From Takakia lepidozioides (Eukaryota > Plantae > Bryophyta): 64,000 nt of DNA. Under the pieces are notes generated by a model. It was not told the DNA's origin. It worked only from the letters and a program-made list of their open reading frames with translations, and did no database searches. Below, in pieces: positions 2,714-31,218 of the stretch. The stretch covers positions 39,060,001 through 39,124,000 of the forward strand of contig CM060731.1 of the NCBI GenBank assembly GCA_030704615.1, in the 5' to 3' direction. Made by a program: the position numbers and the translations under genes. Each line of letters starts with the position of its first letter. Positions within the stretch are counted from its first letter, which is position 1.

Positions 2714-4553
2714 TTAGACTATGACCATCGACTCAGGATCGGCCCCGGCTTTCAGTTGGGTTCGGCCTGCATGCAAGAACCTCGCCACCGAGTTTTCGGT
2801 GAAGAAATTGGCTTCTCCTACGGACAAGGACTGTTTCGATGGAAATGTTTGAGAGGCTCCATTCAAAGATCCGGCTAGTAAAACCAGCTCAGACTGAAAC
2901 TCTGTTAGAGTCGCCTGCTCATTTGCTGGTGTATGTCGCAGTGACCAAGGAGGGGTTGGCAGGACAGCTGCAAGAAGCAAGAAGCAAATCCATTGGTAAG
3001 CTCCAGTCGCAAACAAAGGAGACTGTAAGAACTTCAAACAGCTACTCACGAGGAATAACCATAAGTGGGCGAAGAGCGAACCTGGAGCATCCGTCCTTGG
3101 AGTAGTGCGCGTAGACACAATACTCTCAAATGTTCCAGCCCACTCATCACGCGCTGTCAAAGGACCAAAGGGGAGGTTGAAGAGCTTTCTCACTGTGGCT
3201 GGAATGGAGGAGTGCTCATAATGCGAATAAGGAGCCATAGGGCCAGACGCTTCATGCACAACTGCCAAAAAACACACACCACTAAATTGTCAGGCTGTTA
3301 ATCTTCTTAATTCTTCCATGTATTCGACTTCTTACTTCTGGATGCATGGAAGAAAGTGCCCTTCATGTGTGTATGAGTGTGTGAGTGAGTGAGTGAGTGT
3401 GTGTGTGTGTGTGAGAGAGAGAGACGGGTGGGGAGGGAGGCAGGCCTGTACAAAGGGACACTACGCACATACCAGTGCCTTTCTCAATCCAGGGAGACAC
3501 AGCGATTGTTGGAACTCGAACTCCCAGCCTTTTGAAGTCAAAGTTGTAAGGAGCGGGCCCAATGATACCATCAGGATTAGGGACCCCCGACACAGGGGTA
3601 GGCACATGGTCATAAAATCCACCGTGCTCATCGTAGGTGATCAGAAACAGCATCTGGTTCCACTGAGGACTAGCCCTCAGGGTCTCATAAACCTCTTTGA
3701 TCAGCAGCTGCCCTTGAGCGATATCATGGGACGGGTGATCGTCATTAGCAGGGGCACCGGCCATGTCAAAGTAGCGCGGCTCAAGAACAACGTAATTCGG
3801 GAGAGTGCCTGCCGCTGCATCAGCCTTGAAGTGAAGACCATACTCCTTGAAGTTGTTGGAGTACTTGATCTTTCGCATGTTAATGAAGAAGAGGGTAGAC
3901 GGGACACCTTGGTAGTATACGCCGAATGTGAGTCCTGCGTCGTCAACTGCCTCCATGATGGTTCTTTGTGGAACACCGGCAGCTAGCTGCTGTTGGTCGT
4001 TGCTCATCATTCCATGAGAGGTGGCTGAGTGCACGTAGAAGCGGTTAGGCTGTGTGGAAGCAGGCACAGATGAGAACCACTTGTCGAAAAGTGCGAAATT
4101 CATAGCCAGGGATGTGTGAACAGGGATCACTTCAGGCCTGAAGGCACTCATCACAGTTTTGGAAAAGCCGGGCATCATGCTCTCTGCCTGCGAAGCAAAT
4201 CCATCCATGGGAGGAGGGTCTGCAAATGTAAAGTTTGAGCCAAATATCTGCTGTGTCACCGCCTCGTACGAGTGGCCTGGGTCAGGGTCCACGAACTCTG
4301 CTATGTCAGAGATGAAGACAGGGGATGCATTAGACCCTCCTGTCGTGATAGGATTGAATTCATTACCACTCAGGCCATCCACCTCTGGATTGAGTTTCTT
4401 CAGAAATCCTAGCATGTGATCAAAAGAGCGATTCTCCATGACAAGTATCACGATAGTTTTAATAGGGCCTGTGATAGTCGTCTGACTGCTGATCGGCAAT
4501 GCATAACACAGTAGGAGGTGGAGGAGAAGAGCGACCAGGTGCACTCGCCCCAT
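2714..4553 (-). CDS. NPC: Non-specific phospholipase C (phosphoesterase family); 3 exons: 4553-3473, 3261-3082, 2967-2714
   Basis: Motifs ENRSFDHMLG, DPGHS, VPASTQPNR, DDHPSHD, YDEHGGFYDHV, RLGVRVP and YEHSSIPAT are present, with an N-terminal hydrophobic signal peptide. GT/AG borders join in phase (KGT-G|TT V, DAP-G|CT A). The start could be slightly upstream. Confidence 0.93.
3366..3424. repeat. (TG)n/(GAGT)n/(GA)n compound microsatellite in NPC intron 1
   Basis: Directly visible: tgtgtgtatgagtgtgtgagtgagtgagtgagtgtgtg...gagagaga. Confidence 0.9.
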
Positions 4554-7499
4554 TGTAGACCGCCCGGAATGCATGGCCCAGCAAGTCTTGACCACCAGAA
4601 CCCGGAACTGTGAAATGAGCAAAACGGTTTTGAAGTTTGTCAATACAACAAACATGCGGTCTTAAATATGAGACTAATCCCTCTCAACTCCGAAATGTAG
4701 ACTACTTAACAACTCGGCGAACAAGAGGTAGAGTACGAGGTACTTCAAATCAAACCAATGTGAAAGGATGTGATAGTGCGATGATGTAATGTGTTTAGAT
4801 ACTGGTCGAAGCTTCGGTGGCTTAAGTAGGAAAGAGTCTGCACTCCTAGAGGCACGAAATGACACTCTTAGTGGTGAACAATGCAGTGAGTCCACACATT
4901 ATGGGAGAACTACAGGTCTCGCAGAAGTCCTCAACGCTCAATAAGGATCCACAGGTCCTCTCTGAACCCAGCTCAGAGTCGGCAGTGTGAAGAATCTAGC
5001 GGAAGAGGCACTTGCAGGAATAATATGTTAAATACGTAGAGAGCCTCGACAAACACCTACAGATGCATGCTTGCCTCAGACCATCTATCAGCGCTGAAGT
5101 TCAAACGTTTAAACTGACCCTCATTTTGCAATGCAGAAGAACCAGAATTGCAACTAAATCAGCTCTGAAGTCACTTGGCGATGCAGGAACAAGGCGGACG
5201 ATAATACTGGAACGGAAAACTTGTGTCACATGATAACAGGCTTACCCGAACAACCGATGTGAGCTCCTCTATCACGGGTGGAACTTTGTAAGATCCCAGG
5301 GTTGCTAGAAGAACCACGAGCAGTCACAGGACTGTTCAAAGCTCCGACCAGCTGCACCACATGGTTCTGTTCTTTGACGATTCTCCCTCTCTCTCCCCGA
5401 AGTCACGAAGATCTTGTAAACCACGGAGGGAGGAGGGTCAGAGCAAATATCCAATTTCAGGCCTGCAAGGCGAGCTACAGTAAACACTTGGATACACTGG
5501 AAGAGCCTCGGAAGGCTGCTACAGGGACTGTGGAAAGCTGACGGGAGAGTGAAAGCTGCCATCGTAATTTGGGGGAGCCTTAAAGCCATCTCATCAGCAC
5601 AAGGGACTATAGAGGTTCTTTTGGCATTCTGGACTCTGTATGCGTAGATTATCTGACATGATGCTCGGTTTTGCACCATTTATTCCTTGCTCGCCATCTA
5701 CCAACCCCCCTGGGTTGGTACAGGAACCCACCTCCTTAAGGCTTGACAGCAAGACTCGAGCCATAACTCCAAGCATCGCATTAGTGATGGCCCTAACTCC
5801 TCTGACGTGGGACAGTCTGCCCTCCCTACATATTTAGCTCACGATGGGTCTTTATATTTAGATAGGGTTACCAGCTATAGAGGTAAGTTTAGTTCCTGAA
5901 GAAAGAGATTCAACTTTATCTACATACCGTATCAGGGATTCCATTTCAGAGCGTTATTTGTCTATGTATCTGTTCCAAGACTGAATCTTCGTCCCCATTT
6001 GTTGCAGTGATCACTTGACAAGTTCAGACTTCAGACTCTCACTCTCGTTGCCCAACAATCACATAGGGAAGCTGTCACTTCAAAGTTCAATAGCCTAGGT
6101 ACATGTGGATTCCACAAGTACAGTGGCTTTCGAGCTCAGTTCTAGAATTCCATGGTATTTTGAATTGCGAGGTGCATAGTACATGAGCCGCCAAACAAGC
6201 CTGATATCCCCTCATAAGATGTTCCCAAAGAATAAAATACCAATCTTGAAACCTATCCAATTTGTCGAGTCCTGTACGCTGTCACCCTCGGCTCTCAAAG
6301 AAGTACATAGCTGACAATGGTTTGTCAGGCCAAAAGTAATTTGGATGTTGGGAGTCTTAGCATTAACTCTTCACACGCAAAACTGCATTGATGACTGTAG
6401 AAAAGATCAAGCAGAAGTTAGTATGCACTGGGTACGAAAATTCAAAGCAGAGGCCCTGTGGTCCTGATTTGGCAACGTCGGGCATAAGATAACCAATATT
6501 TAAGTGAATCGAGTAGATCGAAGTGTAAGGGTCAACCGTGGAAGGTGACGTCCTCTTGACTGCATTCATGGCATCACTTGCTGGATGGCTTCGGCAGCTG
6601 TTCTTGTCCAGAGTCATTCATAACATCAACCCACTGCTTTTCGGAACGTGAGCTACTTTTTCCCCTGAAAACTAGATAGGTATGGGCGTCTAGGAACTCC
6701 TCTGCAAACAAGATCTTCTCCTTCGCTTCCAAACTCCATGCAAAGCCTTTTCCCCTCCAAGACTCTGGGGCTGGCCAAGGGAGATATACATAAGGTTTGA
6801 TTACCACAGCATCAATTTTTGCACAAATGTTAATGTTAATGGCAATGGAGGTCCCCCCACCCCCACCCATCAAGAGAGCTATGCTGGCAACTTTTTTGAA
6901 ATGCATGTAACTCATAAAATACATGGAGTTTTGGATACAAATTGCAATGGATGAAAGCCCTGGTTGCCACCTAAGTTTTCCTTCATTTATTTATAAAAAT
7001 AACAGGGGGATTGTAGCCCTGAAAATTTTATTGAAAAAAACAACCTTACAGGGAGCCATAAGGCAGATTACAGAGGTACCACTCAGAGCCAACATAGCAG
7101 AAAACAGGGGAAGAGGAATCAAGACTAGGAAGGAATTATCAATTCCTTGCTAAGTCGAAAACAGGGGGAAGTGAGGATTTAGAAGAGAGCTGATATGTCC
7201 AAACCAAACTGTCAATTCTATCTTGCAAGAAAAATGAGAGCAGGACCAAGGCTGCCATGAACAGCCTACATACTACCCCGTTTCCTTTTAGGACCCTCAT
7301 AAGTAAGCTGAGCTTTTGATTTTGCCTTCCTAGGGCAACTCCGCTTGTGTCTCCATTTTATTTCCGCATCTTCATTCTCCAGTGGAATATGTTTAGTGCT
7401 AGTTGAGCTGCCAATAGGCAAGGGGGGGGTGTCTTCCCACACAATCATCGTGTCTTCAATCCTCCTGCAGAAAACGAAGTCTTTCCCCGAAGAATTGTC

Positions 7500-9102
7500 G
7501 AACTTGTCAAAGAATTGGGGTCTTCAATTACTGTGACACCTGGAAAGAGCTGCAAGCAAGACAGACCAAGCTTTGCGAGCCTCAGGCCTAAGGTCTGAGT
7601 GAGCCAGATAAAGAACTTTCAGCATGCACGGCCTCTCTTTCTGATACACCACACAACACCTCGTTTTCCAAAGTTGCCAAAGGATAAACCCTTTGAGAGA
7701 CTCCCACTCTGGACAAGAACAGTGCATTCTCCCATTCTTTACATTGAGTAACAAGACAGAGGGAGAGGAATCCAAGTCAGAAGACTAGAAGGAGTATAGA
7801 CGAAGGGCCTTGTCCCAAACATATTCCATGTCTTCATCAGCAGCCAGGTTGCAAGAGACACATTGCGAGGGTGAATTTTCAAAATTGGCTGCCACTGGTA
7901 AAATTCTATTAACCATCTGTGTTTTTTCAAGGTGTCTCCCCAAACCAACTTCCACGGCACCACATGACTAGGCAGATGTTGCCATTTTTTAGACCATTTA
8001 CGGTCAAAACCTCTTTTGGGCATCAACAGCTTGTACCCCATCTTAACCGAATATTTAAAGAATGGGTCGTGTCCCTTATTCATCCATACCCACTCCCCTA
8101 GGTCAAACTGGAGCAGCTTAAGAGGGGCAGATAAAAACCAGCAAAAATTCTTACCATATTGTTCCAGATCCATCGGGAGCAATGGGTTGGGATTGCCTGA
8201 AATCTTACAGTAAACCCTTATTTCAAAGGAGTTGCAGCCTTCAAGAATACTCACTGACTTAGGATAGAGGAGGTTACCATCATTACTAACCTCAAAACCA
8301 ATACCATGTATACCAGAGTTATCCTTTGCAATTGCATAGATGGCCCTAGGTTTGGAGTCCACATAATACCCTAACCAGCCGGGAAGAGGCTGCAAGTGAG
8401 ATTCAGCACGTAGTCTTGTCCAATTGTCAGGGAGATCTCCCATAACTGCATTCCAGCCAGCATCAACCCTTTGCGTCGCTAGCTGCTGTGCTGCAAATTC
8501 AGGAGAGATAAGAGACAAAAAGATGTCATCCCAGAAATGCAGGATGTGGATCAAACTTGCAGCTTCCCATTCCGCCCACCGCTTCGAACAAGGAATCAGA
8601 ACCTCTTTATCTCAGTTGCAATTCCCAAAGAGAGGTTGTCTCAAAACCTGGCTGAAGGAGGAGGGACTTAGCTGAACCAGGAAGGGACGCAATTTGCACC
8701 ATGCCATCCAGATTGACTGCCACGCCCTTGAACCCAACCCCGGGTTTTCATTGAGCTTCCCACCTTGCATGATCCACCTCAATGAATGAGCCCATTTATC
8801 ACTAGAACGAGGTATCGCAGCCAGAAAATTCTGTCTAACCAATCGACTCTAAGGGCTGGAAGGTGTGTAAGAGCACGGGGAACCCACTTTGTAAGTAACT
8901 TGGCTGTGATTTGCGTTTGGGGATCCAGCACCCCCAGTCCCCCATTTTTTTTTTTTTTTTGTGTCAGCTGGTCCCAGCTTACCAAAGCTCTTTTGGAGGA
9001 GGTTGAGGGAGTAGCACCCCAAATAAAATTTCTTATGAGGGACTTCATTTTTTTAACAATGAGAGCTCCTGGTAGGATAAGTGCTTCATGGGATAGATGC
9101 AT
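7500..9102 (-). mobile_element. Decayed L1-type LINE, ORF2 C-terminal half
   Basis: Frameshifted ORFs give IRNFIWG...ALVSWDQLTQKK.NGGLG.LD (post-RT motif), YSVKMGY..L (zf-RVT-like region) and ILWQLWKTR. Confidence 0.75.
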
Positions 9103-9399
9103 GGTAATATTGCAATACTACCCCAATGTGCTTTCGGAAATCTCAGACCGGAGTAGTTAAGTGTGCTCGCATTTCTGGGTACACCTTCCATCTAGGACTT
9201 GTATACATATCACTCTGGCTGGCCTTATAAGAATCCATCTCCTTTTGAAACCTCGTTTCCTGGTCATTTAGTTCTTTTTGGCACCGGCCCTCTTCATCCT
9301 TAAGTTCTTTCTGGCGCTTTCTATTGTACATTTGCTCTTGAGCCTTCAATAGATCCTCCACCTTCTTGCCTTGAGCTTGTCGTGCGCATACATATCGCT

Positions 9400-9565
9400 A
9401 CACAACTACATCGCTGTCCAAAACCACACAACACATGTGCACACCACACACTAGTATACCACTAGTCCACCACTAGTCCAGCCACTAGTCCAACCACTAG
9501 GCTACAACTAGTCAGTCACTAGGCTGCCACTATGCTACCCACTATGGCAGTCACTAGTCCACACA
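9400..9565 (-). repeat. Probable 3' LTR start (truncated), rich in ACTAGT/CACTAG short repeats
   Basis: The minus strand reads AGCTAGGGGGGCGAT then TGTGTGGACTAGTG..., i.e. a purine tract followed by TG, ~260 bp after the pol stop. The distal end is not defined. Confidence 0.5.
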
Positions 9566-9566
9566 A

Positions 9567-9580
9567 TCGCCCCCCTAGCT
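9567..9580 (-). other. Polypurine tract (PPT) candidate
   Basis: + strand tcgccccccTAGCT = minus AGCTAGGGGGGCGA, immediately before the TG. Confidence 0.55.
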
Positions 9581-9825
9581 GGTGCTTAGGTCCCTCTAAG
9601 TCCAGGTAGCCACAAGATGTGATAGTGACCATAGCCTCACTAAGTCCTCCACCACTATCCCTACTACACTCAAACTCGATAGATCAAGAGGCCGGGTGCA
9701 AGAGTTGCCCCATCGTTAGTCGCCGTCTTGCAACCTGTGAATTTGAGCTTGGGATCTCATGTATTGACTCCTATGAGCTTGGCCTCCCATGTCTTGTTAG
9801 CTGCCTCCAGTCATGTCCACTGCCA

Positions 9826-9975
9826 CTATCCCAAGCAGTGTGGACACAACCAATCTCCGTCAGGAACCTTCTCAAGAGGTGGTGTCAAGCATCCCATATG
9901 CCAACCCCTTGAGCATCAATCACACACCAGCATGGTGGCTGCCCCTTTGGCAGACCCACAGAGCATGCACCTCAA
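9826..9975 (-). pseudogene. PHD finger (C4HC3) at the pol C-terminus
   Basis: Reading through the TGA at 9916-9918 gives CMLCGSAKGAATMLVCD*CSRGWHMGCLTPPLEKVPDGDWLCPHCLG-stop, a canonical PHD with all 8 Zn ligands. Confidence 0.92.
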
Positions 9976-11090
9976 ACCTGCAGGTACCACTGCCAAGTTT
10001 GGGTCAACTCTGCCATCGACATTGGGAAGGTGACATGGCGCACAATTACGCACATGGTCCTTCCAAGTCATGCCATCCCGACCCTCCAAGATCAGGACCC
10101 CTGAGGGCAACACCTCTCGAACCCTCAGAATAACCCGCCCTGCAGTAACATCCAAAGTCGTAGGAGCAGTCTGCTGCAAATAAACATAGTCACCAGGGCT
10201 AAACCTCCGAACCCCAGGACGATATCCTCCACCACGTATAGTGGCATACCTCAACGTATCACGGTGCTGTGCAATGGCAAGGTTCTCAAAAGCCATGGGC
10301 ATGACTTTCTTGAACAATTCTGCACGCTGATCACATGCACGTACCTACACGTCCGGATCGTCAAGGTTAAGGACTTGAGCAGTGTCCCTACGAATGGCTG
10401 CAGGCAAATCCGGCTCTCGGCCAAAGAGAAGGAAATATGGTGAGAAGGAGGCAAGTGATGCTTGTTTGCTGAACCTGTAGCCCATGGCTAACCAAGGACC
10501 TGAAGATCCCAATCTCCTAGGTGTCCCTTCTGCAAGCCATACTTGCGCAAACCCCTCTTTACCGTCTGAACAACTCTCTCTGCCAAGCCATCGGCCTCAG
10601 GATGATCCTGAGAAGTGGTGCGGTGGTCTATCAAGGCTTTATCATACAAAGCCTGAAACTCCCCCAAGAACTCTCTCCCTTGGTCCGTGAGTACCTCAGC
10701 TGGAGCACCAAATCGGCTAAGCACACGATCCAAGAATGCATACGCAGCCCCCTCACTAGCCTTGTCAGGCAATGGAACCAACTCAATCCACTTGGAGAAG
10801 TGCTCCACCATCACCAACACATATCTGTGGTGGCGCATAGTCAGTGGCAACGGTCCTACGAAGTCAAGACTCCACCTGTAGCCCAATCCCATGATTGGTA
10901 AAGGATGCAACTGTGGTGTAGGGGCGTTGAATGAAGCACGCACCCTGTCACACACCATGCACCTAGCCACGAACTGTTGCACCTCTGTATGCATACCACG
11001 CCACCAATACTGCCCCTGCAGTAAACTGTGAGTGCGTCGCACTCCAAAATGCCCCAATTCCTCATGGGCATGCCGCACTAACCGTGCACG
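9976..11090 (-). pseudogene. Gypsy integrase (HHCC zinc finger, DDE core, C-terminal region)
   Basis: AHEELGHFG...CMVC; SLDFVGPL; LTDQGREF; HPEADGLAER; downstream FSPGDYVYL. Frameshifts near 10.3-10.5 kb. Confidence 0.93.
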
Positions 11091-11984
11091 CTATGTGGGG
11101 TGAGGCACAATCCTCACCCGACCATCCTCCCACACTCGAAGTAGGTGTATCCCCTCCCACTTGAACCTCTTGGCTCGTTGCAGGATCCGATCCCTCTCCC
11201 TGGCAGTCACAGTGGCTGCCGTGTCTCCCGTGCGGAGGTAGTCCAACACAGCCGAATCCTCATGTATATCTCTGGCACCACCTGGCTCATCACTAGCCTC
11301 AGGGTCCTCAGACACTCCGTCTACAGTCATCCCTGTAGTAGGTCCAACCTGACCTCTCGATGCCAAGATACACAAAAATGCAGATGCGTGCCATCTCGGC
11401 ACCATCTCCTCGTCCGTCTCACCATGCCACTGAGCTCCAGTGTCATCATGTTGGCTCGTGCATGGATTGCGACTCAATCCATCCGCATCCCGATTGACCA
11501 AACCCGGTCGATGCACAACCTGAAAGTCATACTCCTGGAGTATAAGTGCCCACCGTGCAAGCTTCCCCGTAAGCTTGTCTGACTCCATCAACCACTTGAG
11601 TGGCTGGTGATCCGTGACAAGGGTGAAAAGATTGCCGTATAGACAGCACCTGAAGTGTGTTACGGCCCACACTGCAGCTAAGCACTCTCCCTCATATGAG
11701 CTGTACTTAGCCTCTGCAGCGTTGTTCGAGCGGCTAGCGTAAGCCACTACGAACTCTCTTCCCTCATCATCCACCTGTGTGAGCACCGCTCCAAGCCCCA
11801 GCATGCTCCAATCCATATGCAGCTGAAAGAGGCGCCCCCTGATAGGTCGTCTCAAGATAGGCGCCGAGGTCAACCTCGCCTTGAGCTCTTGAAAAGCTCG
11901 TTCCTGCTCATCTTCCCACTGCCACTCCTGGTCCACCTTGGTAGCTTGGTTAGAGCATTGCAATGGTACTAAATCCCTTGACAA
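11091..11984 (-). pseudogene. Gypsy RT connection domain and RNase H
   Basis: W....ERAFQELKARLTSAPIL; LGAVLTQ; VAYASR; YSSYEGECLA; LVTDHQPLKWL; ARWALILQEYDF; NRDADGLSR. In frame with the integrase through a single TAG at 11091. Confidence 0.93.
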
Positions 11985-12690
11985 AACCGTCTATAATAGT
12001 TTGCCAACCCCATGAAAGCTCGAACTCGGCTCACATCCGTGGGGCGTGGAATTTGTGCAAGGCCTCTACCTTAGTCTGCTGTACCCCCAATCCTCCAGGA
12101 TATATCATGTGACCCAGATACTCAATCTGGTTGTGGAAAAACTTGCACTTCCCCGGATGCAACTTCAATCCGTGCGCTCTCAAGCGCTCCAATACCACCT
12201 AAAGGTGTCTCTCATGCTCCTCCATCGTAACACTAAAGATGATGATGTCATCTATGTAGCACCGAGCAAAGTCCACCCCTGCTAGAATCCTATCCATGAC
12301 TCTCTGAAACTCTGCAGGAGCATTCTTAAGCCCAAATGGTAAGAACCGCCACTGATATAGGCAACATTGATGAATCCTTGTAAATCCAAAGTGCTAAAGG
12401 CCTTAGCATGCCCGATGGCATCAAAGATCTCCTCTGGTGTTGGCATGGCATACTTATCGGACTTGGTCTGACGATTTACAGGCCGGTAATCACCGCACAT
12501 ACGTCTCTCCGTCCAATTGCCATAGACATCCTTCTTGGCTGGCATCAATGTGGCTGAAGCATACTCTCCACCAGAGAGCTCCACCAAACCTGCCTCCCAG
12601 AGATCTTGAGTCCTCATCTGAATCAAAGACCTCTCCATGTCACTGTATCTATAAGGTCTCCGAAAGATTGGCGTGTCAGTGGCCACTCAA
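11985..12690 (-). pseudogene. Gypsy reverse transcriptase
   Basis: PIFRRPYR, RMCGDYRPVN, FSTLDL, LPFGLKNAP (shifted frame) and YIDDII at ~12241-12258 (+ gatgatgtcatctatgta). Frameshifted. Confidence 0.93.
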
Positions 12691-13203
12691 TACGGATCTC
12701 TTGACCCTTCAGTGCTCCCAAGTCCTTCAAACTAAAGGCAAAGCAATTCCTGTAAGCCCTCAGGAACCGCCGTATACGTCGTCTCTCTCCTCCGGTGACA
12801 ATGGGTCCAATGTCAGGCTCCCAATTGTCCTCCGTAACTGCAACCTTAAGTCCAGTGGGCTTAGAGGTAGAGGACGCGTCCAGTGGTTGCTATGTTGCAA
12901 CCTCTTGAGCAGTACTCCCTACCTGCTCAGTCAATGACAAGGCCTCATCCTACCCCATCATCTCATCCTCGAGGACCTCCTCAACCCGAGAAGAATCCCC
13001 AACCTCATCCATCACAGCCGCCTTGGCTGCCAACTCCCTCTGAACCTCGAGCACCTCCCACGTGTGCCATGGATGCATGCACCCCGTGGTCCTCACATGC
13101 TCGCCCCCACTCACTGCCTGTACCGTCTCGGTAGGCAGAGAGACCATTGAGGGAAGTGTACTCCGCACTCTGCGTTGCTCAGCCAGAGCCAAGCTGATAA
13201 TCA

Positions 13204-14150
13204 GGTCAAGCAATTGAGATCCATTGCTTGCCCCAACACTTGACGACGTGATGCCTCAGAAAGAGACGACACCGCCGTGGTACCAGTGGTAAAACCCATT
13301 GCCCGCTCACGCTCGTCAGCATTAGGCTCCACTAACTGCTGCAACTGAGCATCCCACATGAGGCCAGGTCCACTATCCCGGAAAGCATGCGATCCTGGGA
13401 AGCTGAGCAGTGTAGGTAATGCTGCTCGTGGTTGACCCACCTTGTTGACCACTGCCAAAGGCGAACGGTCATCGTGTCTCACACGCTGAGACTGCCTCCC
13501 TGTGTCCAGAATGTTATCCACTGTGAGATGTGCTGGCCGCTGCACCCCATCAAATGCACGCTTGAGCAGTGCGGGTGGCATCAAGTTAGTCCACCATAGC
13601 CGTGGACGATGAGCCCGTGACCCCACTGTAGCTGCATCTAGCAACACTGCTGACCCAAGCCACGACCGGACTTGATGCACACTGGCCATCACCCTGGCCC
13701 GAGAATCGCCCATCAGTGGCACATTCTCCAAGATGTATGCTGGAGATACAGCTTGATGAAGCTGCAAGTGGCGCAAAACCCGCACCATCTCCCAAAACAG
13801 ACCCGACCTCGAGTCTCGCAATCCATTGCCATGCCCGGCTGATGAATGCCCTTGGCAGGGCCAACCTGCCACTACCAGATCAATGGAGCCAACCCGCTCC
13901 AAATCCTGCGCCCCCAGCAACGAAATGTCTGCTGGCAAGGCCTGCTGATATCCACGAATTGCAGACACGACAACAACTCAGGGTACCGCTGCACCAACTG
14001 AGCAACATGGCGAAGTGAAACGCGTCGTGCAGTCTCATCCCTCTCCACATACAGGTAACGCCGAACTCGTACACCTGCTTGTAACACAGCAGCCAATCCG
14101 GTGCTGATCCCGCCAAACAAGTCCAGAAGACAAATGCCTTCATCCGGATA
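13204..14150 (-). pseudogene. C5 cytosine DNA methyltransferase domain (DNMT3-like) embedded in pol
   Basis: Motif I LLDLFGGISTG; II YVERD; IV DLVVAGWPCQGHS (catalytic PC at ~13855); SGLFWE; VI YILENV; VIII AHRPRLWWTN; IX ERERAMGF; X RRQVLGQAMD. One frameshift at ~13970. Confidence 0.92.
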
Positions 14151-14529
14151 CTGCCACACAATAGGTGTGGTGTCCAATGGAGACAATTGAGGTGGTCCTG
14201 GTGCAATCCCCACACTCTCCTCCTCTCTTGACGGTACAAAAGCCTCCACCCAGGCTTGTTGCACCCGTCGATCAGCATCCCGCTGCAAATCCTTGCTCGT
14301 GCCCCACAATGGAGTCTGAGCAACCATGGTAGGCAACTCCGCCATACCATACATGTCATCCTGCTCTCCCGGAGGTGGTACATCCTCTGAATGAGCATTG
14401 CCCTCAAGCAACTCTCTAGGCCAACTCACTGCCGCTGTGAATGCTGCTAGTGTCGGCATCTTGCCTCGCTGGGCAACCGCAACTCCTCCTATGAACGTCA
14501 CAGGGAGCTGCACACGCCGGCCCTCCCCT

Positions 14530-14880
14530 GACTGCCATGCAGGCCTATAGGAAGCTGACTCCTCCCAAAAATCCAGGGTGAAGCCCATGGGGTACAACAC
14601 TGCCCCACCAACCAGGACATCGTATGAGACTGCGTCTGTCACAATGGCCTTGGCTCGCATCACTGAGCCATCTGTAGGGTGATCCGGCCGTAGTCTGATA
14701 GCCAACTCACGCCGTGTCATGCCCCGAGCCTGCTCCGATCCTCCCAGAGACGTCTGTATCTGGAAAGGACAAGGCTCCATATCCGCCTCCGTGAGGCCCA
14801 AGCCTGCAATAGCAGCTCTGCCCAGCATCAATGGCTGAGCTCCCGAGTCCAACAAGACCCGCAGTGGCCGGTACCTCTTG
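14530..14880 (-). pseudogene. Retropepsin aspartic protease
   Basis: RVLLDSGAQPLML...SYDVLVG. It lies in the same reading frame (13872-15059) as DNMT motifs I-II. Confidence 0.85.
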
Positions 14881-15218
14881 CCTGCCGGTCCACTCAAACA
14901 GAAAATGCCATCCTGGTTGTCTAACATGACAACTCCAGGTGTCACCATGGCGCGCTCAATGGCTGGCCTAGCTGGCAGCTCCATCAACCTGGCAGCTGCA
15001 GCTTGCCATGGCGCCGCCGTGGCAGTCTTGACCCTCAAATCCGAGGATCCCTCCGGCACTACACCTCCACTATCTCCGCAGAAGATGAAGTAACCTCCCC
15101 ACTCTCACAGAGTGTAGCTGCCAGCCTGAACACCTCAGCTGGTTTACCCCCGGCGTCGCAATCATGGTAGCCGAGAACAATGGAGCCTGGCACACAGATG
15201 TGGCCGCTCCTAGCAGCA

Positions 15219-17080
15219 CTAGCTGCTAGCCTTGGCAACACTAGCCGGGACTTCGCAGCTCGTGGCACCCGTGGTGGCGTGGTGGCGTGGTGCTACCCGT
15301 GTAGCTCTCTCCAATGACATAGTAACCTCCGCCTCGGTAACCGTCGGGCGAGAACTAGGTGCCATGGATGGCGTCGACACTGTCTCCGCCAATGTGAATG
15401 ACTGAGGAAGCCTAGCCTGACGGCTTGCCTCCCCACGCTGTGGATCCAACTCCACCTCTGCACCTCGTGGCTCAGGAACTCGTGCTGCTCCTCGAGTCAC
15501 GGCTGCAGCAGACTCCACCTGCACTAGTGGTAGTGCTGCTCCACACATGAATCCCATGCCTCCCATATCTCCTCCCTCAGGAGCAGGAGGTGGACCATCC
15601 GGCCTTAGAGCCGGTACCACCTGAGCTGTAGCCATGGCAGCGAGCCTCTGCTCTAGCTGCTGAAGCCGGTTGGCCATGCCTTGGTCAACACCCTGACCTC
15701 CGCGTCCTTGGCCACGTTGAGCTTGCCCTTGGCCTTGTGGCTGGCCACCTCGTCCTCTCTGGGCTGCTCCACCTCGCCCCCGGCCACCATTGTTCCCTTG
15801 GAACTGGCCTGGGCGCAACTCAGGATGCAAACCATAACACTGGGCCTCTCCATGCCCGTGCTTGCCACAATGCCCACACTGCAACTGTGCCGACCCTTTG
15901 CCTCCCTCTGGGCAATCCTTCTTGACATGGGGTCCTCCACATGTCCAGCACACCACATCCGCCCGTTGTTGGCCAGCAAATGAAGGGAGAGACCCCTGCA
16001 TCTGAGGTCCTCTCTGCCCTTCCCTGAGCTTCACCTGAGCCCCCTTGTTGCCTTGAGCACGTTGAGGTAGTGGTTGGCTAGGAGCACCACTACCCCGTGG
16101 TGTCTCCTTAGCAAATCCCACCATGACCACTCGTTCCTCCACCATGTTGAGCTCTATCCGCTCTGCCACAAAAACACATTTGCTAAGGTGGGTTGGGCCG
16201 CTTGTAGGAGAGTTGCATCCCGCACCCTTCTCCTCAGCTCCTTGTCCAATATCCCATACCAGAATTGGACTGCCTGAGCTTCCGTAACCCCTTGGGTTAC
16301 ATTTATCAAGCGCCTCATGCGAGTGAAAGCCTCCCTCAAGCTCTCGGTCGGCTTCCGTTGGAACTCTTGCAAGCTCCGCAACTTCTCTGTCCTCACCCCT
16401 TGGTAGTTCCCTCTCAACTCTTCGAAGAACTCCACAACAGGGTTGAAGGCAGGCACGGGTGCTAGTGCTGGTGGGGTAGTGGCTTGGGTGGACGTCGTAG
16501 CTACTGTACCACCAGTCCCACTAGTTCCACTGCTACTTGCTGAAGCTGCCGGTGCAGCGGCAGGTGTAGCCATTGCCCTCGTGGCTCTAGTGCCCCTAGT
16601 GATGGAGACATAGTCGGGTGACCAGTACATCCTCCACTCCTCGATCTCAACCTCATGCCCCCGCCTGAACTCATGGTAATCATCCATAGGCGGCCCCTCA
16701 AGGTGCTGAAACAGCCCCTTCCATGCCATGAAAGGCGTAAATAGTTGTGGATTGCGCATTTGCTGCAAATCACACCAACTATCAAACTCTTGGATAAAAT
16801 CATCCAACTCGATGGTGCCCACCGCCCCAGAGTACCTTCGTGGCCCCTTGGTAGCTCCATACATCTCCTCCATTGTGTCCCACAACAATGGCAAGGAAAC
16901 AACTTGCACCGCCGGTATGAGTCCTCCTGATTCACAATCCGAATCAGAACCTTCCGTAGAAGACACAGGAGGTGAAGGTGGCCTAAACCGCACACCTCGT
17001 CTCGTGTACCCACTAGTATCGCTAGTGCTCGAACCGGCACTGTCCCCAGCAACTAGTGGCACCTCCGTGTTGACACTCAA
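15219..17080 (-). pseudogene. Gag (capsid-like region, two zinc knuckles, RG-rich region); frameshift at ~16160
   Basis: LDDFIQEFDSW; LQEFQRKPTESLREAFTRM (Retrotrans_gag-like); CWTCGGPHVKKDC; CGHCGKHGHGEAQC. Confidence 0.85.
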
Positions 17081-17769
17081 CCGGTCATGAACATGTCCCT
17101 AACCCCCTCTCCACAAGGTAACCGGGTAGAGAACCTGTTGCGGCTTATGGTTTGGAATACTAAGTTCCTAACATAGCCTACACCTGTACCTGCATCCACC
17201 GCAAGCACTCCTATGGTTGGCTGGTCATCACCTCCAACCTCACCACAGGAGAAACAATGATGGTTTGGCTGGTCATACCCCAGCCTCACCATCGACAGCA
17301 TGCTCTAGGACTGGCCGGTGATCAAATCCGGACCAATCACCTATAAAAACAAGCGCCCACACAAAACTAGCATGGCGCACAGTCAAGCATGCAGGTATGG
17401 AGGGGATCCAAACACAAGAAATCAGAACGACAACTCCCCCACACCAAAAACAACTCCACGGTGTTGCTCCTGCAAGGACACCCAGCCCAAACCCGGACTG
17501 ACTCTTGCCTCCACCTACGGAAAGGTCTTGGTCTAATGAGAGGGTGGAAACTACGAGGAAGAGAAGCTAAAGCAATGCCTAACCCCAGCATGCCCTCATC
17601 CCAACACTCTTCCTCTCCTCTCTTCCCTCATTTGCATGACCATGGGAATATCATGAAGATACTCCTCAAACCGCCCTCCACGAGCTTCAAAATTCGGCCT
17701 TCAAGACCACATGCCAGTCCTTAGGTAGTCCACCAGTGCCTCCACGAGTCAGCACAGGCCGTCCACAGG

Positions 17770-18330
17770 TCAACACGGGCCACCACAGACCAGCACAGGC
17801 CCACACAGCTCGTCACAGTCCCACAGGCCACTGGGCACAACCTGTCACAGCCCCTCATAGCCCGTCACAGCTCCGCACAGCCCGTCACAGCCCCACAGGC
17901 CACTGGGCACAGCCTGTCACAGCCCCTCACAGCCCGTCACAGCTCCACAGCCACTGGGCACAGCCCGTCACAGTCCGTCACAGCCCCAAAGGCCTCAGGC
18001 ACGGCCTGTCACAGCCCCTCACAACTCGTCACAGCCTCAAAGGCCTCAGGCACGGCCTGTCACAGCCCCTCACAGCCCCACAGGCCACTGGGCACAGCCT
18101 GTCACAGCCCTGCACAGCCCGTCACAGCCCCACAGGCCACTGGGCACAGACTGTCACAGCCCCGCACAGCCCGTCACAGCCCCACAGGCCACTGGGCACA
18201 GCCTGTCATAGCCCCGCACAGCCCCACAGGCCACTGGGCACAGCCTGTCACATCCCCTCACAGCCCATCACAGCCCCACAGGCCTCAGGCACGGCCTGAC
18301 ACAGCCCCTCACAGCCCGTCACAGCCCCAT
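17770..18330. repeat. GC-rich minisatellite of ~10-bp CACAGCCCGT/CACAGCCCCT/CACAGCCTGT units with CACAGGCCACTGGG or AGGCCTCAGG spacers
   Basis: Directly visible. It generates the spurious repetitive ORF 17736-18299. Confidence 0.92.
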
Positions 18331-18769
18331 CCATGGCCGCTTTGGCAGTTTAGCCATTTCTCCAAGGGGTTTAGCCACGCCAAGCTAGGGTTTGTGTCTC
18401 TTGGACTCTAAGCTTCTTTCCACCGAGCTATGGCGGCTGTGAGGAAATCAGCAAGGCATTCTTGCTCTTTCGGCTCCCACACATCACCATAGTAGCCCTA
18501 AGCCATGAGGTGGTTGCCACAAACCAAGCCTTCTTTCTCACTTAGCCTCCCCAAATACGCCACTAAACCCAATGGCAAACAACCAAGCCCTGCTGGTTCC
18601 CAGCCCTTGTGAGCATTCATTCAAGCACTCTCCTTGGCCATAGCATCTATCTTAGAGCCTATTCCAGCCCCCTACACCTGCTGCTTCAAGAGTTGCGCTC
18701 CCTTCAAGCTTGAAGTTGAAACCCCAACTCACATAGGCCCTACAAGTGCTTTTCTTTCACTCCAAGTGG

Positions 18770-19180
18770 AAACCAGCCCTAGACCTTCTTTTCTTGCACT
18801 CTAAAGCTTGAAAACAAGAGCCTCAATGGGCTGAAGGCATGCTCCACACATGCCCCACTCTCACCATAAGAGAATCAGCTCCTTTGCTTCATTTCTTGCA
18901 CCCACAAACCTGAAAATACAAGCTTCAGCAGGCTGAAAGCATGCTCCACATGCCCTACAGGAAAACCAGCCCCTTCCTTCCTTTCTTGCACTCCCACACC
19001 TGAAAGTGCAAGCCTTCACCAGGCTGATAGCATGCTCCACACATGCATTGCCCTCACATAAGGGAAGTCAGCCCTTCCCTCTTCCTTGCTTGCCCTCCAA
19101 GCTTGAAGATGGAAGCTTCAATGAGCTGAACACATGCTCCACACATGCAACCTCTTCACACAAGAGATATCAGCCCCCTA
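18770..19180. repeat. About four degenerate ~90-105-bp tandem repeats
   Basis: A recurring core TTCTTGCAC..TGAAA..AAGC..GCTGA..CATGCTCCACA(CA)TG..CAGCCC, with cores near 18839, 18940, 19031 and 19134. Confidence 0.75.
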
Positions 19181-21949
19181 TCTCGGCTCCTTGGCTCCTT
19201 GATGCTCTCTAAGACAAGACTAAGCACTCCACAGCCTTTGCCAAGCTCTTGAAACCCTAAGGCTTACATTTCCAGCCACAAGACACTTCTCTTGTGGTGC
19301 AAGAGCTCTTATCCAAGCTCTGAAACCCTAGGTGCACATTCCATGGCCTTGCCGCACCTCTTAGCTCCTGTTCCAGCCCTGCTCTTGCCATGACAAGAGC
19401 CCTCTCAATGCTGAAGCTCGAGATTGAAACCCAATCTCACCATACTCCACAAAGTGCACTGATTTGCCCTAAGCCAAATCAGCCCTTTCGCTTGGTCTTG
19501 CAATCCTTCACACAATGAAAGCTCGCATTCCCAAGTCCAGTTCTCAGCTTTGCCACCAAAGCCACTATAACCTGCTCTTGACTGGTCCTCTTCCCAATCG
19601 TGCTTGCTCATGCATATACACAATCTGAAACCATCAAGGTGCTCTGGAATTACCTGCAGCATGGTGCTTTCATCTCTGAAGCTGAAGATCGAATGCTAGG
19701 TCTACCACCTCGTAACCCACATCGCCTCCGCTTCTAACAACCAAGAGCTCCACGGTGCTCCTTGCATAACAACTTGGTTTCTCTCATTCTCAAACAAAAG
19801 CCACAAGTGCTACAACTAACTCGTATCTGGCACTCACAGATACGAGCTCATCTTTCTCGAGTGATAAAGAAGAAGAATACAAGCACGAACTCACAAATCT
19901 GAAGCATAAACTCATGCATATATAACCTCATCACTCAAATACAAGTCAAGCCAAGTGCACCCCACGCCATGGGGAATCCACACTACGGCGCCATAGCTAG
20001 GCGCGGTGAGGCTCAACTCGAGAAAGATGAGCCTTCCGCGCTTGCCGTGAAGATAACCACTCCAGGGCCTAAATCTGCCTTGACCCCTGGATTGACACTT
20101 GGGCCAATCCCAAATGTCAATATGTAAAAGCTAGCTATTTCCTAGCTAGTTTCACACTAGTGGTAAAATAACTTGACAAGCTGCCATCCAATTTTGAAGA
20201 GTTTGTTGCATATCAGACAAAGCATTTGACTCGGAGTGCAACTCAATGAAGGACAACTGCTGCGAGAGAATGAAAACCTGAATTTGTATATGGAACTGTC
20301 ATTTACAAGTCTTAGGACATTGTCGATGGTAGGGAGGACTTTCTTATATCTTTTTTTGGGCACTTGGGAGTGTCTTTGGTATTTGCTGCTGCTTGTTTAG
20401 TCCAAGACTTAGATGTAGAAGACGGGTGTTCTCTCAATGAATTGTTTGGACTACCTCTTCATGACGATATGTTTGGGCTTGAATTGGCAGTATCTAATGA
20501 TGATTCAGACTCTGATTTTGACCCTTTGGAAGAAGCAGAGACTAAGTAACCCATTCGTTATTGACAACCCGAATTTGATGGACTTCTGTGCAGACATTGG
20601 GTTCCCCACCCGAGAGCTGGGCTTGTATGACTTGCCAGAAGCTTGGAAAGGATGGGAGTCTCATGATTCATTTCTTGCAACTGGTCCTCAGCAAATCAGC
20701 ATAAAGAACCCCGTCTCCCTAATTGAATGTCCACCCACAATCCAAGCAGCCAACCAGTCCCACCCTGTCTACAATGTCTCCAGGTAAATGGATAACTTGA
20801 TACGGACAAAAGTTGTGTAATTCAATTAAATCAATAAGATGTTATGAGGTTCAAGCATTGCAACTGATCTAGAGCGCACTTGAGGTTTCCCACGCTTGCA
20901 ACTGACTAATTAAATTTGACCTTAAATTATGGTGGGTTGTATCAAAAGAGATCTGCAAAACGACATGAAGACAAAGCTTATGAAGACCAACAAAACTCAA
21001 TATGATAGAAATATGAGTAAAAACTCACCATATTGTTTGGAAGAAAGATGTCATGTTCGAGAAGATTATATGAGCCAATCCATACAACTCAATGCAATCT
21101 CAAACGTCTTCGAAGAGAGCAAAGTCATTAGAGATCAAAATCAGATAATTTACATATAATATTATGATAAAAGAGTTTTCATGAGCCATTGTATACTAAA
21201 TGTTGTGATTATCAAAGTTTTTCTTACATTCAATAGTGGATCTTGTATAGACGCATCATCTTACTAAAACTTCTTTAAGAGATTGTTTTTTGTCTTATTC
21301 CAACAAAGCCAAGACTTCATTAGGACAAAATATTAGATCATCAACATATAACGTTATGATGACAAAAGAGTTAGCATTCACATAGTAAATGTTGTAAATG
21401 GTCTATGACTTGCGGTTTTGTCTCCCTTGGAGAACAATTCTTTATGAAGCTAAAAATAAAAGTAAATTAAGCAACTCATCTTGCTATGACTCCGGTTTTA
21501 TCTCCCTTGCGGTTCGTTGGAAAACAACTCATTATCAAGTTAAAGATAAAAATATGATATCCAACATTTATGATATCCAACATGATGTGGGTTGAATCCA
21601 CAACCACTAGCGACTTGGTTTGTGCCCATACTAAATATTAAATCACTAGTGAGCGGGTTTGTGTCCATCTCACTAGGCTAAATGTAGGTTAAATGTTGGT
21701 TGTATTACTCTGACGATAATCATAGCAGTGGTCATAGTGAGTCTCACCTTCAGTTTGGAATATAGGAGATAATCAATATTATAATTATCTCGCTAAGTTT
21801 GGAAAAGATATGCTATAATGATCTCAGTTGTTTTTGGCATGGACCTTGAGTATAAATAGGGCAGAGCTGAGAGGATGGAACAATAGCTTGTCGAGTTCCT
21901 ATACTTAGTGGAGATTTTACGTAAATCACTTCATCTTTAATCATTATTT

Positions 21950-23650
21950 TCTTAGTGCTTTCAACATGGTACATAGCGAGGTTGGCAGTGAGAGAAACTT
22001 AAGGACTGGAGTGTCTGATCCACAATCTATAGGCATGAGTGCTTGTTAAAACCGAAAGTTTGAGTATTCGTAGTTGGCAAAGCCACATACAAATCATTGT
22101 GTCAATTTTGAGAAAAAAAACATTTTGTCAATTGACCTCCAATTGACTTTATCTTAATCAAGAGTTGTAGAACTTGAAGATGAAGGAATGAGGTTCAGTT
22201 CAAGACCACATTGATGAATTTCAAGCGTCTAGTGATCATTTGACCAACATTTGTCATCGTGTTCAACTGAAGATTTGACATTCATTTTTCTTGGAAGCTT
22301 GTCGCCTTCATATTAGACGTTGGTAATATCTCTTGGTACTCATATAATGATCTGATATCAAGGTGATAAACTTAAAGATCTTCATCTGAAACACACGATA
22401 ACTAATATTAGTCAAATGATCACTAATCATTTGAAGTTTATCAAAAGATGGTGTTGAGCTGAACTTCTTTCCTCCATCGTCATGTTGTACAACTATTGGT
22501 TAAGATAAAGTCAATTGACAACATGTAACTAAAATGTACGGATTATATAACCCTAAGAGTGGCATGTTATCATCAAGCATTAGAAAAAGAAGACTCTGGC
22601 TATGCCATCATGCGTAACTAAAAGCCCGCTTCACTTCGAAGTTATAGCCCTCTTTTAGGAACGAGCTCTATTATTAGTTGTGATGTTACATTCAATGATT
22701 AGTTGCTCTGAGTTTGGACCATGAAATAGATAACTTGGTTCTAACTCACGAAGAGAAAATGAAAGAAGAGATTGTCGAGAAACTCATAGAGGAGGTTACC
22801 ATTGAGAACCTCCAAATGTATCATTTGCTTATTTCATTCATAGTGATGAGCCTCAAAAAATTTCAAATGCATTGAAAAGTAAGAATTCTTCACACTAGAC
22901 AAAAGTCGGTAGCTCAGTATGATAGTGCACTTGGTTAGGGCATTGAGTGCCACCCGGATGATTCTGGGGTCAAATCTTGCTACTTGACGGGTGTGGTATA
23001 CTCTTCTCCCCATTCCTTTGGCGGTGTCCCACTTCTAGCCTCCATGGCACGGTGGCACGGTTACTGTGAAAGAGGTTATTTTCTCCTCTCACTATCAAGG
23101 GGCCTGATTTGTGAGCTGTTGCTCCCAGGTGTTTCTTAAAAATAAAAAATAAAAAAATCCCTACTTCAGTTGAATCTTCAAGATAATAAGACTTGGAGTA
23201 GTGTTAAACTTCAATTTGGACGTCAACCTGTTGGTTGCAAAATTAATGGATTTTCAAAGTTAAGCACAATGCCGATGATTACATAGCAAGACACAAAACA
23301 TGTGTAGTTGCAAAAGGTTTTCACATACTGAAGGTATTGATTACCATGAAATATTTTCCCTGTTGCACAAATAGAATAAAAAAAAGAGTCAATTCAAGTA
23401 TTTCTTGCATTTGTTGTTGTTGTTAAAAATCTTGAGATAGATCGGATGGATGCACGCACATTAGTTCTTAATGGAGATCTTATAGATGAAGTATATATAG
23501 ACCAGCCAAAGAGATTTGTTATAAAAGAGAAAGAGATGACCGTATTTGTATGTGGAATTACAAGATTAATGCATATTTGGCTGAAAAGTTTAAAAAGAAT
23601 TTTGCTTAATTTAAAGTGCATTAAATTGAAAAGAGGCATACCTATGTTCT
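21950..23650 (+). mobile_element. Highly decayed Ty1/Copia remnant (gag and RT fragments)
   Basis: ~22170-22250 LKMKE*GSVQDHIDEF (UBN2-type gag). ~23190-23370 RQPVGCK/WIFKVKHNAD/VAKGF/EGIDYHEIFSPVA. 23446 MDARTLVLNGDLIDEVYIDQP corresponds to the Copia QMDVKTAFLNG motif. Confidence 0.85.
22908..23157 (+). mobile_element. tRNA-derived SINE, copy 1 (inserted in the Copia remnant)
   Basis: A-box-like GTAGCTCAGTATG, B-box-like GGGTCAAATC, A-rich tail. Near-identical to 23946-24145. Confidence 0.75.
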
Positions 23651-23945: not shown

Positions 23946-24145
23946 GTAGCTCAGTTGCATAGTGCACCGAGTGCCACCCAGATGATTCTGGGGTCAAATC
24001 CTGCTACTTGACGGGTGTGGTATACTCTTCTCCCCCTTCCCTTGGGCGGTGTCCCATTTCTCAGCCTCCATGGCACGGTTACTGTGAAAGAGGTTATTTT
24101 CTCCTCTCACTTTCAAGGGGCCTGATTTGTGAGCTGTCGCTCCCA
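23946..24145 (+). mobile_element. tRNA-derived SINE, copy 2 (3' tail cut at the inversion breakpoint)
   Basis: GTAGCTCAGTTGC...GGGTCAAATCC...gagctgtcgctccca, then an abrupt switch to Hsp70 coding sequence. Confidence 0.75.

Positions 24146-25040: not shown

Positions 25041-31218
<6,178 letters not shown>

Follow-up and report, generated by a model that had tools for sequence, protein, structure and literature searches.

The stretch of DNA analysed here (the window) comprises 64,000 nt of the Takakia lepidozioides genome, CM060731.1 39,060,001-39,124,000, and its feature of interest is a Ty3/Gypsy element on the minus strand (Table 1). In coding direction the element has Gag with a CCHC knuckle, aspartic protease (PR), DNA methyltransferase (DNMT), reverse transcriptase (RT), RNase H (RH), integrase (INT) and a PHD finger. 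The Gag-PR-RT-RH-INT order with a DDE integrase is that of Ty3/Gypsy elements.

Table 1. Features of the element and its borders; coordinates are window positions, and a point in the strand column marks features recorded with no strand.
Feature	Position	Strand	Evidence and remarks
Whole Ty3/Gypsy-type element	9378..20178	-	10,801 bp; termini TGTC...GACA; form A-internal-B, neither repeat duplicated
Target-site duplication, left, AGCT	9374..9377	.	junction reading
Target-site duplication, right, AGCT	20179..20182	.	junction reading
3' terminal repeat B, first part of the reverse-transcription LTR	9378..9569	-	extent inferred; 11-12 bp sub-repeats; directly behind the purine tract, like B1 in related loci
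Polypurine-tract-like G run	9570..9576	-	192 nt from the 3' end in this copy
PHD finger C4HC3, final domain of ORF2	9835..9969	-	PF00628 E 4.7e-11, PDB matches, ligand conservation; ORF2 stop 9826-9828
Premature stop (TGA) within the PHD	9916..9918	-	private to the window copy
Integrase C-terminal region: long helix, beta-rich SH3-like domain, conserved A-P-C-H linker	9994..10326	-	custom profile, AlphaFold model of homologue P0002, conservation
Integrase zinc-binding domain and DDE core	10497..11200	-	PF17921, PF00665; broken by stop 11091-11093 and a frameshift near 10497
RNase H	11469..11786	-	PF17917 E 5.6e-34
Reverse transcriptase	11960..12850	-	several frameshifts, one deletion, one stop
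Amber codon, UAG-CAA-CCA, between ORF1 and ORF2; predicted readthrough site	12890..12892	-	same frame as the end of ORF1 and the beginning of ORF2; conserved in related loci
DNMT3-like C5 cytosine methyltransferase, final domain of ORF1	13207..14138	-	PF00145 E 2.1e-13; motifs I, IV, VI, VIII present; frameshift near 13971
Aspartic protease	14526..14867	-	D-S-G at about 14849
Gag	15357..16873	-	CCHC knuckle 15837-15878; start codon 16873; PF03732 weak, E 9e-4; aligns to residue 1 of Marchantia P0123
Tandem array in the 3.3-kb 5' leader	17794..18329	.	10/42/52 bp periods
5' terminal repeat A	19988..20178	-	opens TGTCA like A of related loci; depth step; inner limit provisional

Loose contig ends fall at 9378 and 20178, and contig depth is 0.3-1.8 million inside the element against 108-144 outside it, with the DNMT and PHD parts equally covered. 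Summed contig depth is not a copy number, and the contrast suggests a very abundant family. The element was inserted into a decayed LINE-like stretch of a gene-bearing region, a single site which carries no information on targeting. By eye, this stretch (7739-9377, minus strand) resembles the C-terminal part of a LINE RT; its 290-codon frame has no Pfam match.

The rest of the window has its own content. Host genes code for a non-specific phospholipase C (3363-4661, minus), a PP2C (41184-42368, minus) and an F-box protein (56473-57144, plus). Two long open frames (45910-48786 and 50731-53925, plus) with 303-bp repeats encode PLS-type PPR proteins with E and DYW domains, which are typical RNA-editing factors of seed-free plants. 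A LINE with endonuclease and RT in an 891-codon frame lies at 59839-63328 (plus), and its 3' part recurs in decayed form at about 29837-30303 (minus). By eye, a Copia-like remnant and HSP70-like exons occupy about 23250-23600 and 24140-24500 (plus). A 99-bp direct repeat was found at 22923/23947 and an inverted repeat at 22140-22517.

A preliminary description of this DNA had proposed a PHD finger of the form C-x2-C-x11-C-x2-C-x4-H-x2-C-x14-C-x2-C, fused to the integrase C-terminus and split by a TGA. The finger has exactly this spacing and lies in frame behind the integrase C-terminal domain, and the TGA is present 90 nt before the natural stop. When the stop is read as X, the translation reaches 43 bits with PF00628 against a cut-off of 24. 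The finger matches 74 distinct PDB sequences, and all of the 60 listed are PHD-containing chromatin proteins, led by CHD4, PHF12, KDM5B/KDM5A PHD1, Lid, ATXR5, PHF21A, DPF3, BAZ2 and UHRF1.

The premature stop belongs to this copy only. In DNA run X1, one base of the codon at 9916-9918 differs from the window in 897,329 of 902,438 depth units; the same base differs in 308.9 of 316.2 units in run X6 and in 7.1 of 7.1 in run X8, the three runs of the comparison (run X7 has no cover at this codon). The base change is a transition of the CpG-deamination type, in agreement with the CGA>TGA origin that had been guessed. Intact copies neither keep the stop at 9916 nor lack the PHD, the two outcomes named beforehand as contrary evidence. 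The finger had also been thought to be hidden by this one stop, and here the damage proved much wider. A stop at 10345-10347 and the frameshift near 10497 detach the C-terminal domain and the PHD from the integrase core, further in-frame stops occur at 11091-11093 and 12199-12201, and the frame changes near 11942, 11983, 12060, 12380 (with a deletion), 12685, 13205, 13971, 15143 and 16168. The window copy is dead.

Is the finger, then, a functional part of the family? The eight zinc ligands are 98-100% kept among 142 homologues. In 55 pairs of 11 hand-picked sequences, the PHD had pS 0.77 (saturated) and pN 0.27, and the integrase tail 0.78 and 0.26; the resulting pN/pS ratios are 0.36 for the PHD, with synonymous sites saturated, and 0.33 for the tail. 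The PHD is under purifying selection by this measure, and it sits, as had been proposed, at the position of the chromovirus chromodomain. In a copy so heavily decayed, the finger might be imagined to be a coincidence of sequence, or a selectively neutral piece of host DNA that this copy alone picked up, but the E-value, the ligand conservation, the selection and the presence of the finger across green plants make the probability of such an origin practically nil.

The AlphaFold model of the intact homologue P0002 (pLDDT 74) has the integrase core, the long helix, the beta-rich domain and a confident PHD, and its integrase matches those of foamy virus and Ty3. PF00628 is the sole Pfam match in the integrase tail, with no chromodomain match there. 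In the homologue alignment, a possible extra zinc knuckle precedes the PHD (C104 kept in 100%, H105 in 96%, H97 in 76% and C101 in 80%).

The distribution of the fusion was evaluated on two sets. The integrase-tail search returned 185 longer proteins, with PF00628 in 117 of the 120 listed, a proportion biased by the PHD in the query; the three listed homologues without PF00628 terminate within or before the finger. The named proteins among them belong to Marchantia, Calypogeia, Sphagnum, Klebsormidium, Pleodorina, Volvox, Tetrabaena and the JGI 'Chrzof1' models, and the DNMT search returned 117 proteins. The second set, 80 metagenome loci collected through RNase H/integrase peptide patterns, is less biased than the integrase-tail query. 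Of the 57 loci assessable for the PHD, 53 have it following the integrase tail; DNMT precedes RT in 30 of 37 assessable loci, and 20 of the 27 loci for which both flanks are available have both domains. The loci cannot be counted as independent, for at 80% identity they fall into 15 clusters, one of which holds 50 loci; among the clusters that could be assessed, 11 of 12 have the PHD and 8 of 10 have DNMT. Where examined, loci without PHD or DNMT look like truncations or deletions. In the copy represented by L045 and L048 (9407-10247), Gag, protease, RT, integrase and PHD are present and DNMT is missing, which looks like an internal deletion.

The family spans liverworts, Sphagnum, Closterium and chlorophytes. 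Judged from these sequences, an integrase fused to a PHD is the rule in it, from liverworts and Sphagnum through to volvocine algae. The co-occurrence of PHD and DNMT, which had been put forward as a check, holds family-wide, and by the same comparisons the PHD/DNMT3 pairing is standard in a green-plant-wide and partly described family.

For the DNMT of the intact Marchantia homologue P0123, DNMT3A/B/C rank first among 27 PDB matches; the DNMT3 relation is one of similarity ranking and not of a tree with host DNMT3. Among 132 domains the catalytic Cys is kept in 127 of 129 non-gap rows and the Glu in 129 of 132, and the two motif VIII arginines in 124 of 130 and 125 of 129. CpG depletion in the element (0.48) is no stronger than in the host PPR genes (0.34-0.35), and thus it gives no sign of self-methylation. 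The apparently great abundance of a DNMT3-carrying family in a land plant is a warning that bryophyte DNMT3 and PHD gene counts can include transposon copies.

The DNMT domain's position divides the family into two layouts. In type A, to which the window element and all classifiable named streptophytes belong, ORF1 is Gag-PR-DNMT and ORF2 is RT-RH-INT-PHD; DNMT ends ORF1 and PHD ends ORF2, about 1,000 codons apart and with a conserved stop between them. In type B, represented by 34 complete proteins and containing the named chlorophytes, the order is RT-RH-DNMT-INT-PHD, and DNMT lies 93-311 residues before the integrase profile. Altogether, PHD and DNMT share one polyprotein in 64 proteins, distributed over four DNMT-before-integrase-PHD and DNMT-RT-...-PHD layouts (34+25+4+1). 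The A/B split corresponds to one branch in the integrase tree (23 versus 64 rows, SH-aLRT 92; a quick, unrooted tree with 22 unclassified rows uncounted) and to one branch in the DNMT tree (43 versus 64 rows, support 99; FastTree, unrooted, 17 rows ungrouped). Alignment A3, whose DNMT rows aligned at 13-19% identity, was left out. Type-B proteins such as P0046, P0052 and P0085 have long C-terminal tails behind the PHD (median 130 residues), and P0081 and P0221 additionally carry PF01585.

What is the function of the stop between DNMT and RT in type A? In the related locus L002, a single amber codon separates a 1369-codon frame from a 1047-codon frame that is in phase with it. A stop followed by YAR-YYV, 265-345 nt before the RT profile, was found in 24 of 30 DNMT-RT linkers (29 loci and the window) against 1 of 571 control windows; this is the relaxed form of the motif, and one match (L075) is doubtful. 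Of the 50 regions examined, many of which are cut short or frameshifted, 7 have the strict form, UAG/UAA-CAR-YYA in the RT frame. In more divergent loci the lone stop reads UGA-CGG (L050, L052) or UAG-GGG (L079). The contexts found correspond to readthrough types I, II and III (PMC3542737), and a lone in-frame stop in such a context is a feature of programmed readthrough. In the window there is a second stop at 12950-12952, 60 nt upstream of the amber codon. In four proteins (P0025, P0168, P0172 and P0174) DNMT runs into RT with no stop at all. We therefore regard the stop between DNMT and RT, with good confidence for a prediction from sequence, as a readthrough site.

Termination with reinitiation, or a separate RNA for ORF2, would give the same proteins by another route. 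The largest cluster of loci has UAG-CAA-CCC followed by an in-frame AUG two codons past the amber; this departs from CAR-YYA and allows reinitiation, and no stable RNA structure was detected behind the window amber (z -0.8). However, the AUG is absent there in the window, L001, L002, L009 and L055, three distinct known readthrough contexts are represented, some relatives have no stop to pass, and type I readthrough requires no RNA structure (PMC3542737). We consider this alternative rather improbable, and it concerns expression alone. If readthrough is true, the methyltransferase would be an abundant particle-level product, which bears on the question of why retrotransposons keep DNMTs. The conserved stop would also account for annotations in which such elements appear as two genes, 'DNMT' and 'pol'.

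The ends of the element are also uncommon. No pair of full terminal LTRs, such as Ty3/Gypsy elements have, was found in the window, where the single-B form is present; the family as a whole has DIRS-like split direct repeats. Related loci have the form A-internal-B-(2 nt)-A-B or A-internal-B, with B of about 86-118 bp and A of about 285-460 bp. Among 33 sequences (32 loci and the window), 13 ends are long and 20 short, L002 being counted as short though it is long, and the G run is present in 30, mostly 90-120 nt before the end of B. A 4-bp target-site duplication, within the 4-6 bp of Ty3/Gypsy elements, flanks both end forms (window, L016, L023, L032 and L061) and is unmatched in L057. The purine tract precedes the first B (B1) only, which implies that the reverse-transcription LTR is B+A and that the inserted forms are its circular permutations. 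For the single-B form, permuted LTRs with circle integration and recombination between B1 and B2 fit this position equally well. By eye, divergent families seem to share a short non-coding motif located between the PHD and the purine tract (window 9730-9760, minus strand; L001, about 7940-7965; L002, about 8355-8385).

If the PHD is retained by selection, what does it read? The cage Trp characteristic of H3K4me3 readers, whose column we take to be two residues before the zinc-binding His, is found in none of 130 fingers, and the window finger has Gly at this position. The role of this Trp in H3K4me3 reading is described in PMC5415848. The 130 fingers are those used for all signature counts, after 19 of 149 PHD-bearing proteins which were off pattern had been dropped; Asp follows the third Cys in 121 of them and the terminal Trp is present in 122. 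In alignment with KDM5B-PHD1, the window finger keeps the equivalents of L325, D328, P347, G349 and W351, which in KDM5B bind A1 and R2 of H3, and has no equivalents of D308 and E321, which contact K4 and T3 (PMC4225485). It therefore has the A1 pocket (Leu, Pro, Gly, Trp) and the R2-binding Asp that H3 N-terminus readers use, and it lacks the K4-binding acidic residue and the acidic wall. With the cage absent and the A1/R2 pocket kept, the PHD likely docks the integrase on free H3 tails.

The two layouts differ in this respect. An acidic residue before strand 1 was found in 3 of 22 type-A versus 55 of 58 type-B fingers, by a test of a 5-residue window and not of the exact column, while the pocket (Asp after the third Cys, P-x-G-x-W) is kept in 21, 19 and 22 of the 22 type-A fingers. 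The mean net charge of the PHD is -4.7 in type B and +1.3 in type A, and the type-A PHD forms the extreme C-terminus (median tail 7 residues). Neutralising the acidic patch of BAZ2A cut its H3 binding 17-fold (PMC5415848); because the acidic K4/T3 contacts are absent, binding by type-A fingers may similarly be weak or redirected. We predict that type B reads unmethylated K4 well and that type A grips the first residues alone, or has shifted its ligand.

Such a shift could have gone further. The land-plant PHD may have drifted from histone reading; its ligand could now be DNA, a different protein or its own integrase, with the palindromic B|A junction that forms both element ends as one candidate site. 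The loss of the acidic contacts, the change of net charge from negative to positive, the terminal position of the type-A finger and the unusual element ends would all suit such a role. Yet type A retains the A1/R2 pocket, which is needed for H3 N-terminus binding, and we hold a complete departure from histone reading to be fairly unlikely.

On balance, we favour the following explanation: the window contains a decayed Gypsy-DNMT3 copy, and the conserved integrase-terminal PHD would tether the integration complex of the family to nucleosomes through the free H3 N-terminus. Occasional ribosome readthrough would give DNMT at the level of Gag, and RT and integrase-PHD at a few percent. The protease would then release DNMT and integrase-PHD as separate proteins. 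Through the PHD, insertion would be biased to chromatin whose H3 tails are unmodified and probably directed away from promoters with H3K4me3, with K4 discrimination weaker in land plants than in green algae. DNMT would work on its own, and its simplest substrate would be the cDNA of the element inside the particle. Marking of cDNA by DNMT was proposed for DIRS elements by de Mendoza et al. (PMC5890265). It would follow from this scheme of readthrough and protease separation that the type-A reader and writer serve one element and probably not one machine.

The preliminary description had seen in the pair a possible means of targeting integration and/or methylation to a chromatin state, with the ADD domain that steers host DNMT3 as its parallel. 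In the methylation version of this idea, the finger would guide the DNMT in the manner of the animal DNMT3 ADD domain, and methylation would fall on the place of insertion or its flanks. The pairing of a histone reader with a DNA-methylation writer, on which this idea was built, is borne out by the 20 of 27 loci and by the 64 single polyproteins; the catalytic Cys and Glu are kept, and readthrough products would briefly hold both domains. A unit like DNMT3A is another matter. In type A, the two domains belong to different ORFs with the conserved stop, RT, RNase H and integrase between them, most DNMT molecules would lack the PHD, and the land-plant finger is also devoid of the acidic residues that read K4 in solved relatives. 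ADD-like coupling is thus quite unlikely for type A. It would be more plausible for type B, given the short distance of DNMT from the integrase profile; the acidic patch of the PHD is also kept there.

A more extended picture than that of nucleosome tethering can be drawn only tentatively. This would be a self-marking clade, in which Gag-level DNMT3, loaded by means of readthrough, pre-methylates the cDNA, the integrase opens circular cDNA at the LTR palindrome and the PHD lands on H3K4-unmethylated nucleosomes. Between green algae and streptophytes, DNMT would have moved within the element, and the PHD would have been retuned in how it reads H3.

Parts of this system are already in print. The nearest relative is KnitGypsy-Dnmt3 (PMC5890265), the streptophyte 'Gypsy-DNMT3' of bioRxiv 10.64898/2026.05.21.726589, which like the window element combines Gypsy domains with an intronless DNMT3-like domain and DIRS-like split repeats; a DNMT3-related domain inside a Gypsy ORF is also what we found. 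In Klebsormidium, P0040, P0041 and P0067 are PHD-bearing homologues, and the KFL_ proteins are 50-55% identical over the query. In the integrase tree (SH-aLRT 92, quick tree), P0040 and P0041 share their side of the split with the window element, and we infer that the KFL_ proteins are the published KnitGypsy-Dnmt3 elements. The text and three supplement files of PMC5890265 do not mention a PHD, and its Fig. 4c and supplementary figures may show one. That paper describes an acquisition in K. nitens, whereas the family presented here is wider, with two DNMT positions and a readthrough-type stop. The KnitGypsy-Dnmt3 DNMT gave no methylation in yeast, a test which its authors call inconclusive (PMC5890265). 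The streptophyte and dinoflagellate cases are repeated in PMC12344493.

Histone readers in LTR elements have several precedents. The chromoviruses (Tcn1, Chlamyvir, Tekay, Reina, Galadriel and CRM; PMC6317226) share the RT-RH-INT order and a histone-reader module at the integrase C-terminus. In the window element, by contrast, the PHD replaces the chromodomain, a DNMT is added and the repeats are permuted. EpiLTRs (bioRxiv 10.64898/2026.05.21.726589) also unite a histone reader and a DNA methyltransferase in one LTR element, but with a chromodomain and with DAM and a DNMT4-sister enzyme, and their authors call Gypsy-DNMT3 a distinct acquisition. Phygy (PMC6317226) is likewise a non-chromodomain Gypsy of a seed-free plant; it is short, its interior is filled by coding sequence and it prefers NCGN targets, whereas the window element has a 3.3-kb leader and the target AGCT, and by eye only one NCGN (L020) occurs among the 3' flanks of the loci. 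The texts of PMC6317226 and PMC3350952 do not contain 'PHD'.

The PHD has its own precedents in Chlamydomonas, where we take REM1 to be a PHD-bearing Gypsy element. Gypsy-7a_cRei and other Chlamydomonas elements (PMC9940879, PMC8557442, PMC6673714) have a PHD in Gypsy Gag-Pol for which steering of insertion was proposed. Compared by description, Gypsy-7a_cRei has ordinary LTRs and no DNMT listed, and the legend puts its PHD before INT; its insertions fall between genes 2.6 times more often than expected by chance (PMC9940879). PHD fingers in retrotransposons are also treated in bioRxiv 10.1101/2021.11.30.470311, whose PHD-transposon fusion table may already show the PHD of this family. As to the finger itself, those of the KDM5-PHD1, CHD4, DPF3, BAZ2, UHRF1 and AIRE type share C4HC3, the absence of the cage Trp and the A1/R2 pocket (PMC4225485, PMC5415848), and unlike type-A fingers they have the acidic K4 and 'acidic wall' residues.

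Both a PHD in Gypsy Pol and Gypsy-DNMT3 are thus in print, each separately. We met no report of the PHD and DNMT3 pairing, of readthrough or of chlorophyte members in the literature covered, which did not extend to figures, most subscription papers and bioRxiv supplements. Apparently new are the readthrough site, the two DNMT positions and the matching shift of the PHD signature. If the tethering by PHD proposed here is right, PHD fingers join chromodomains as plant integrase targeting modules, and insertion bias can be tested against public chromatin maps, since the clade has copies in the tractable Marchantia.

The relation of the Takakia copy to those of liverworts has one further aspect. 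The window DNMT (13201-13977) is 67-75% identical to Marchantia and Calypogeia copies (among P0122-P0133), and the neighbouring host gene has its best named matches in a moss (70%) and a lycophyte (68%), with no named relative above about 70%. This combination would fit either a liverwort host or horizontal transfer.
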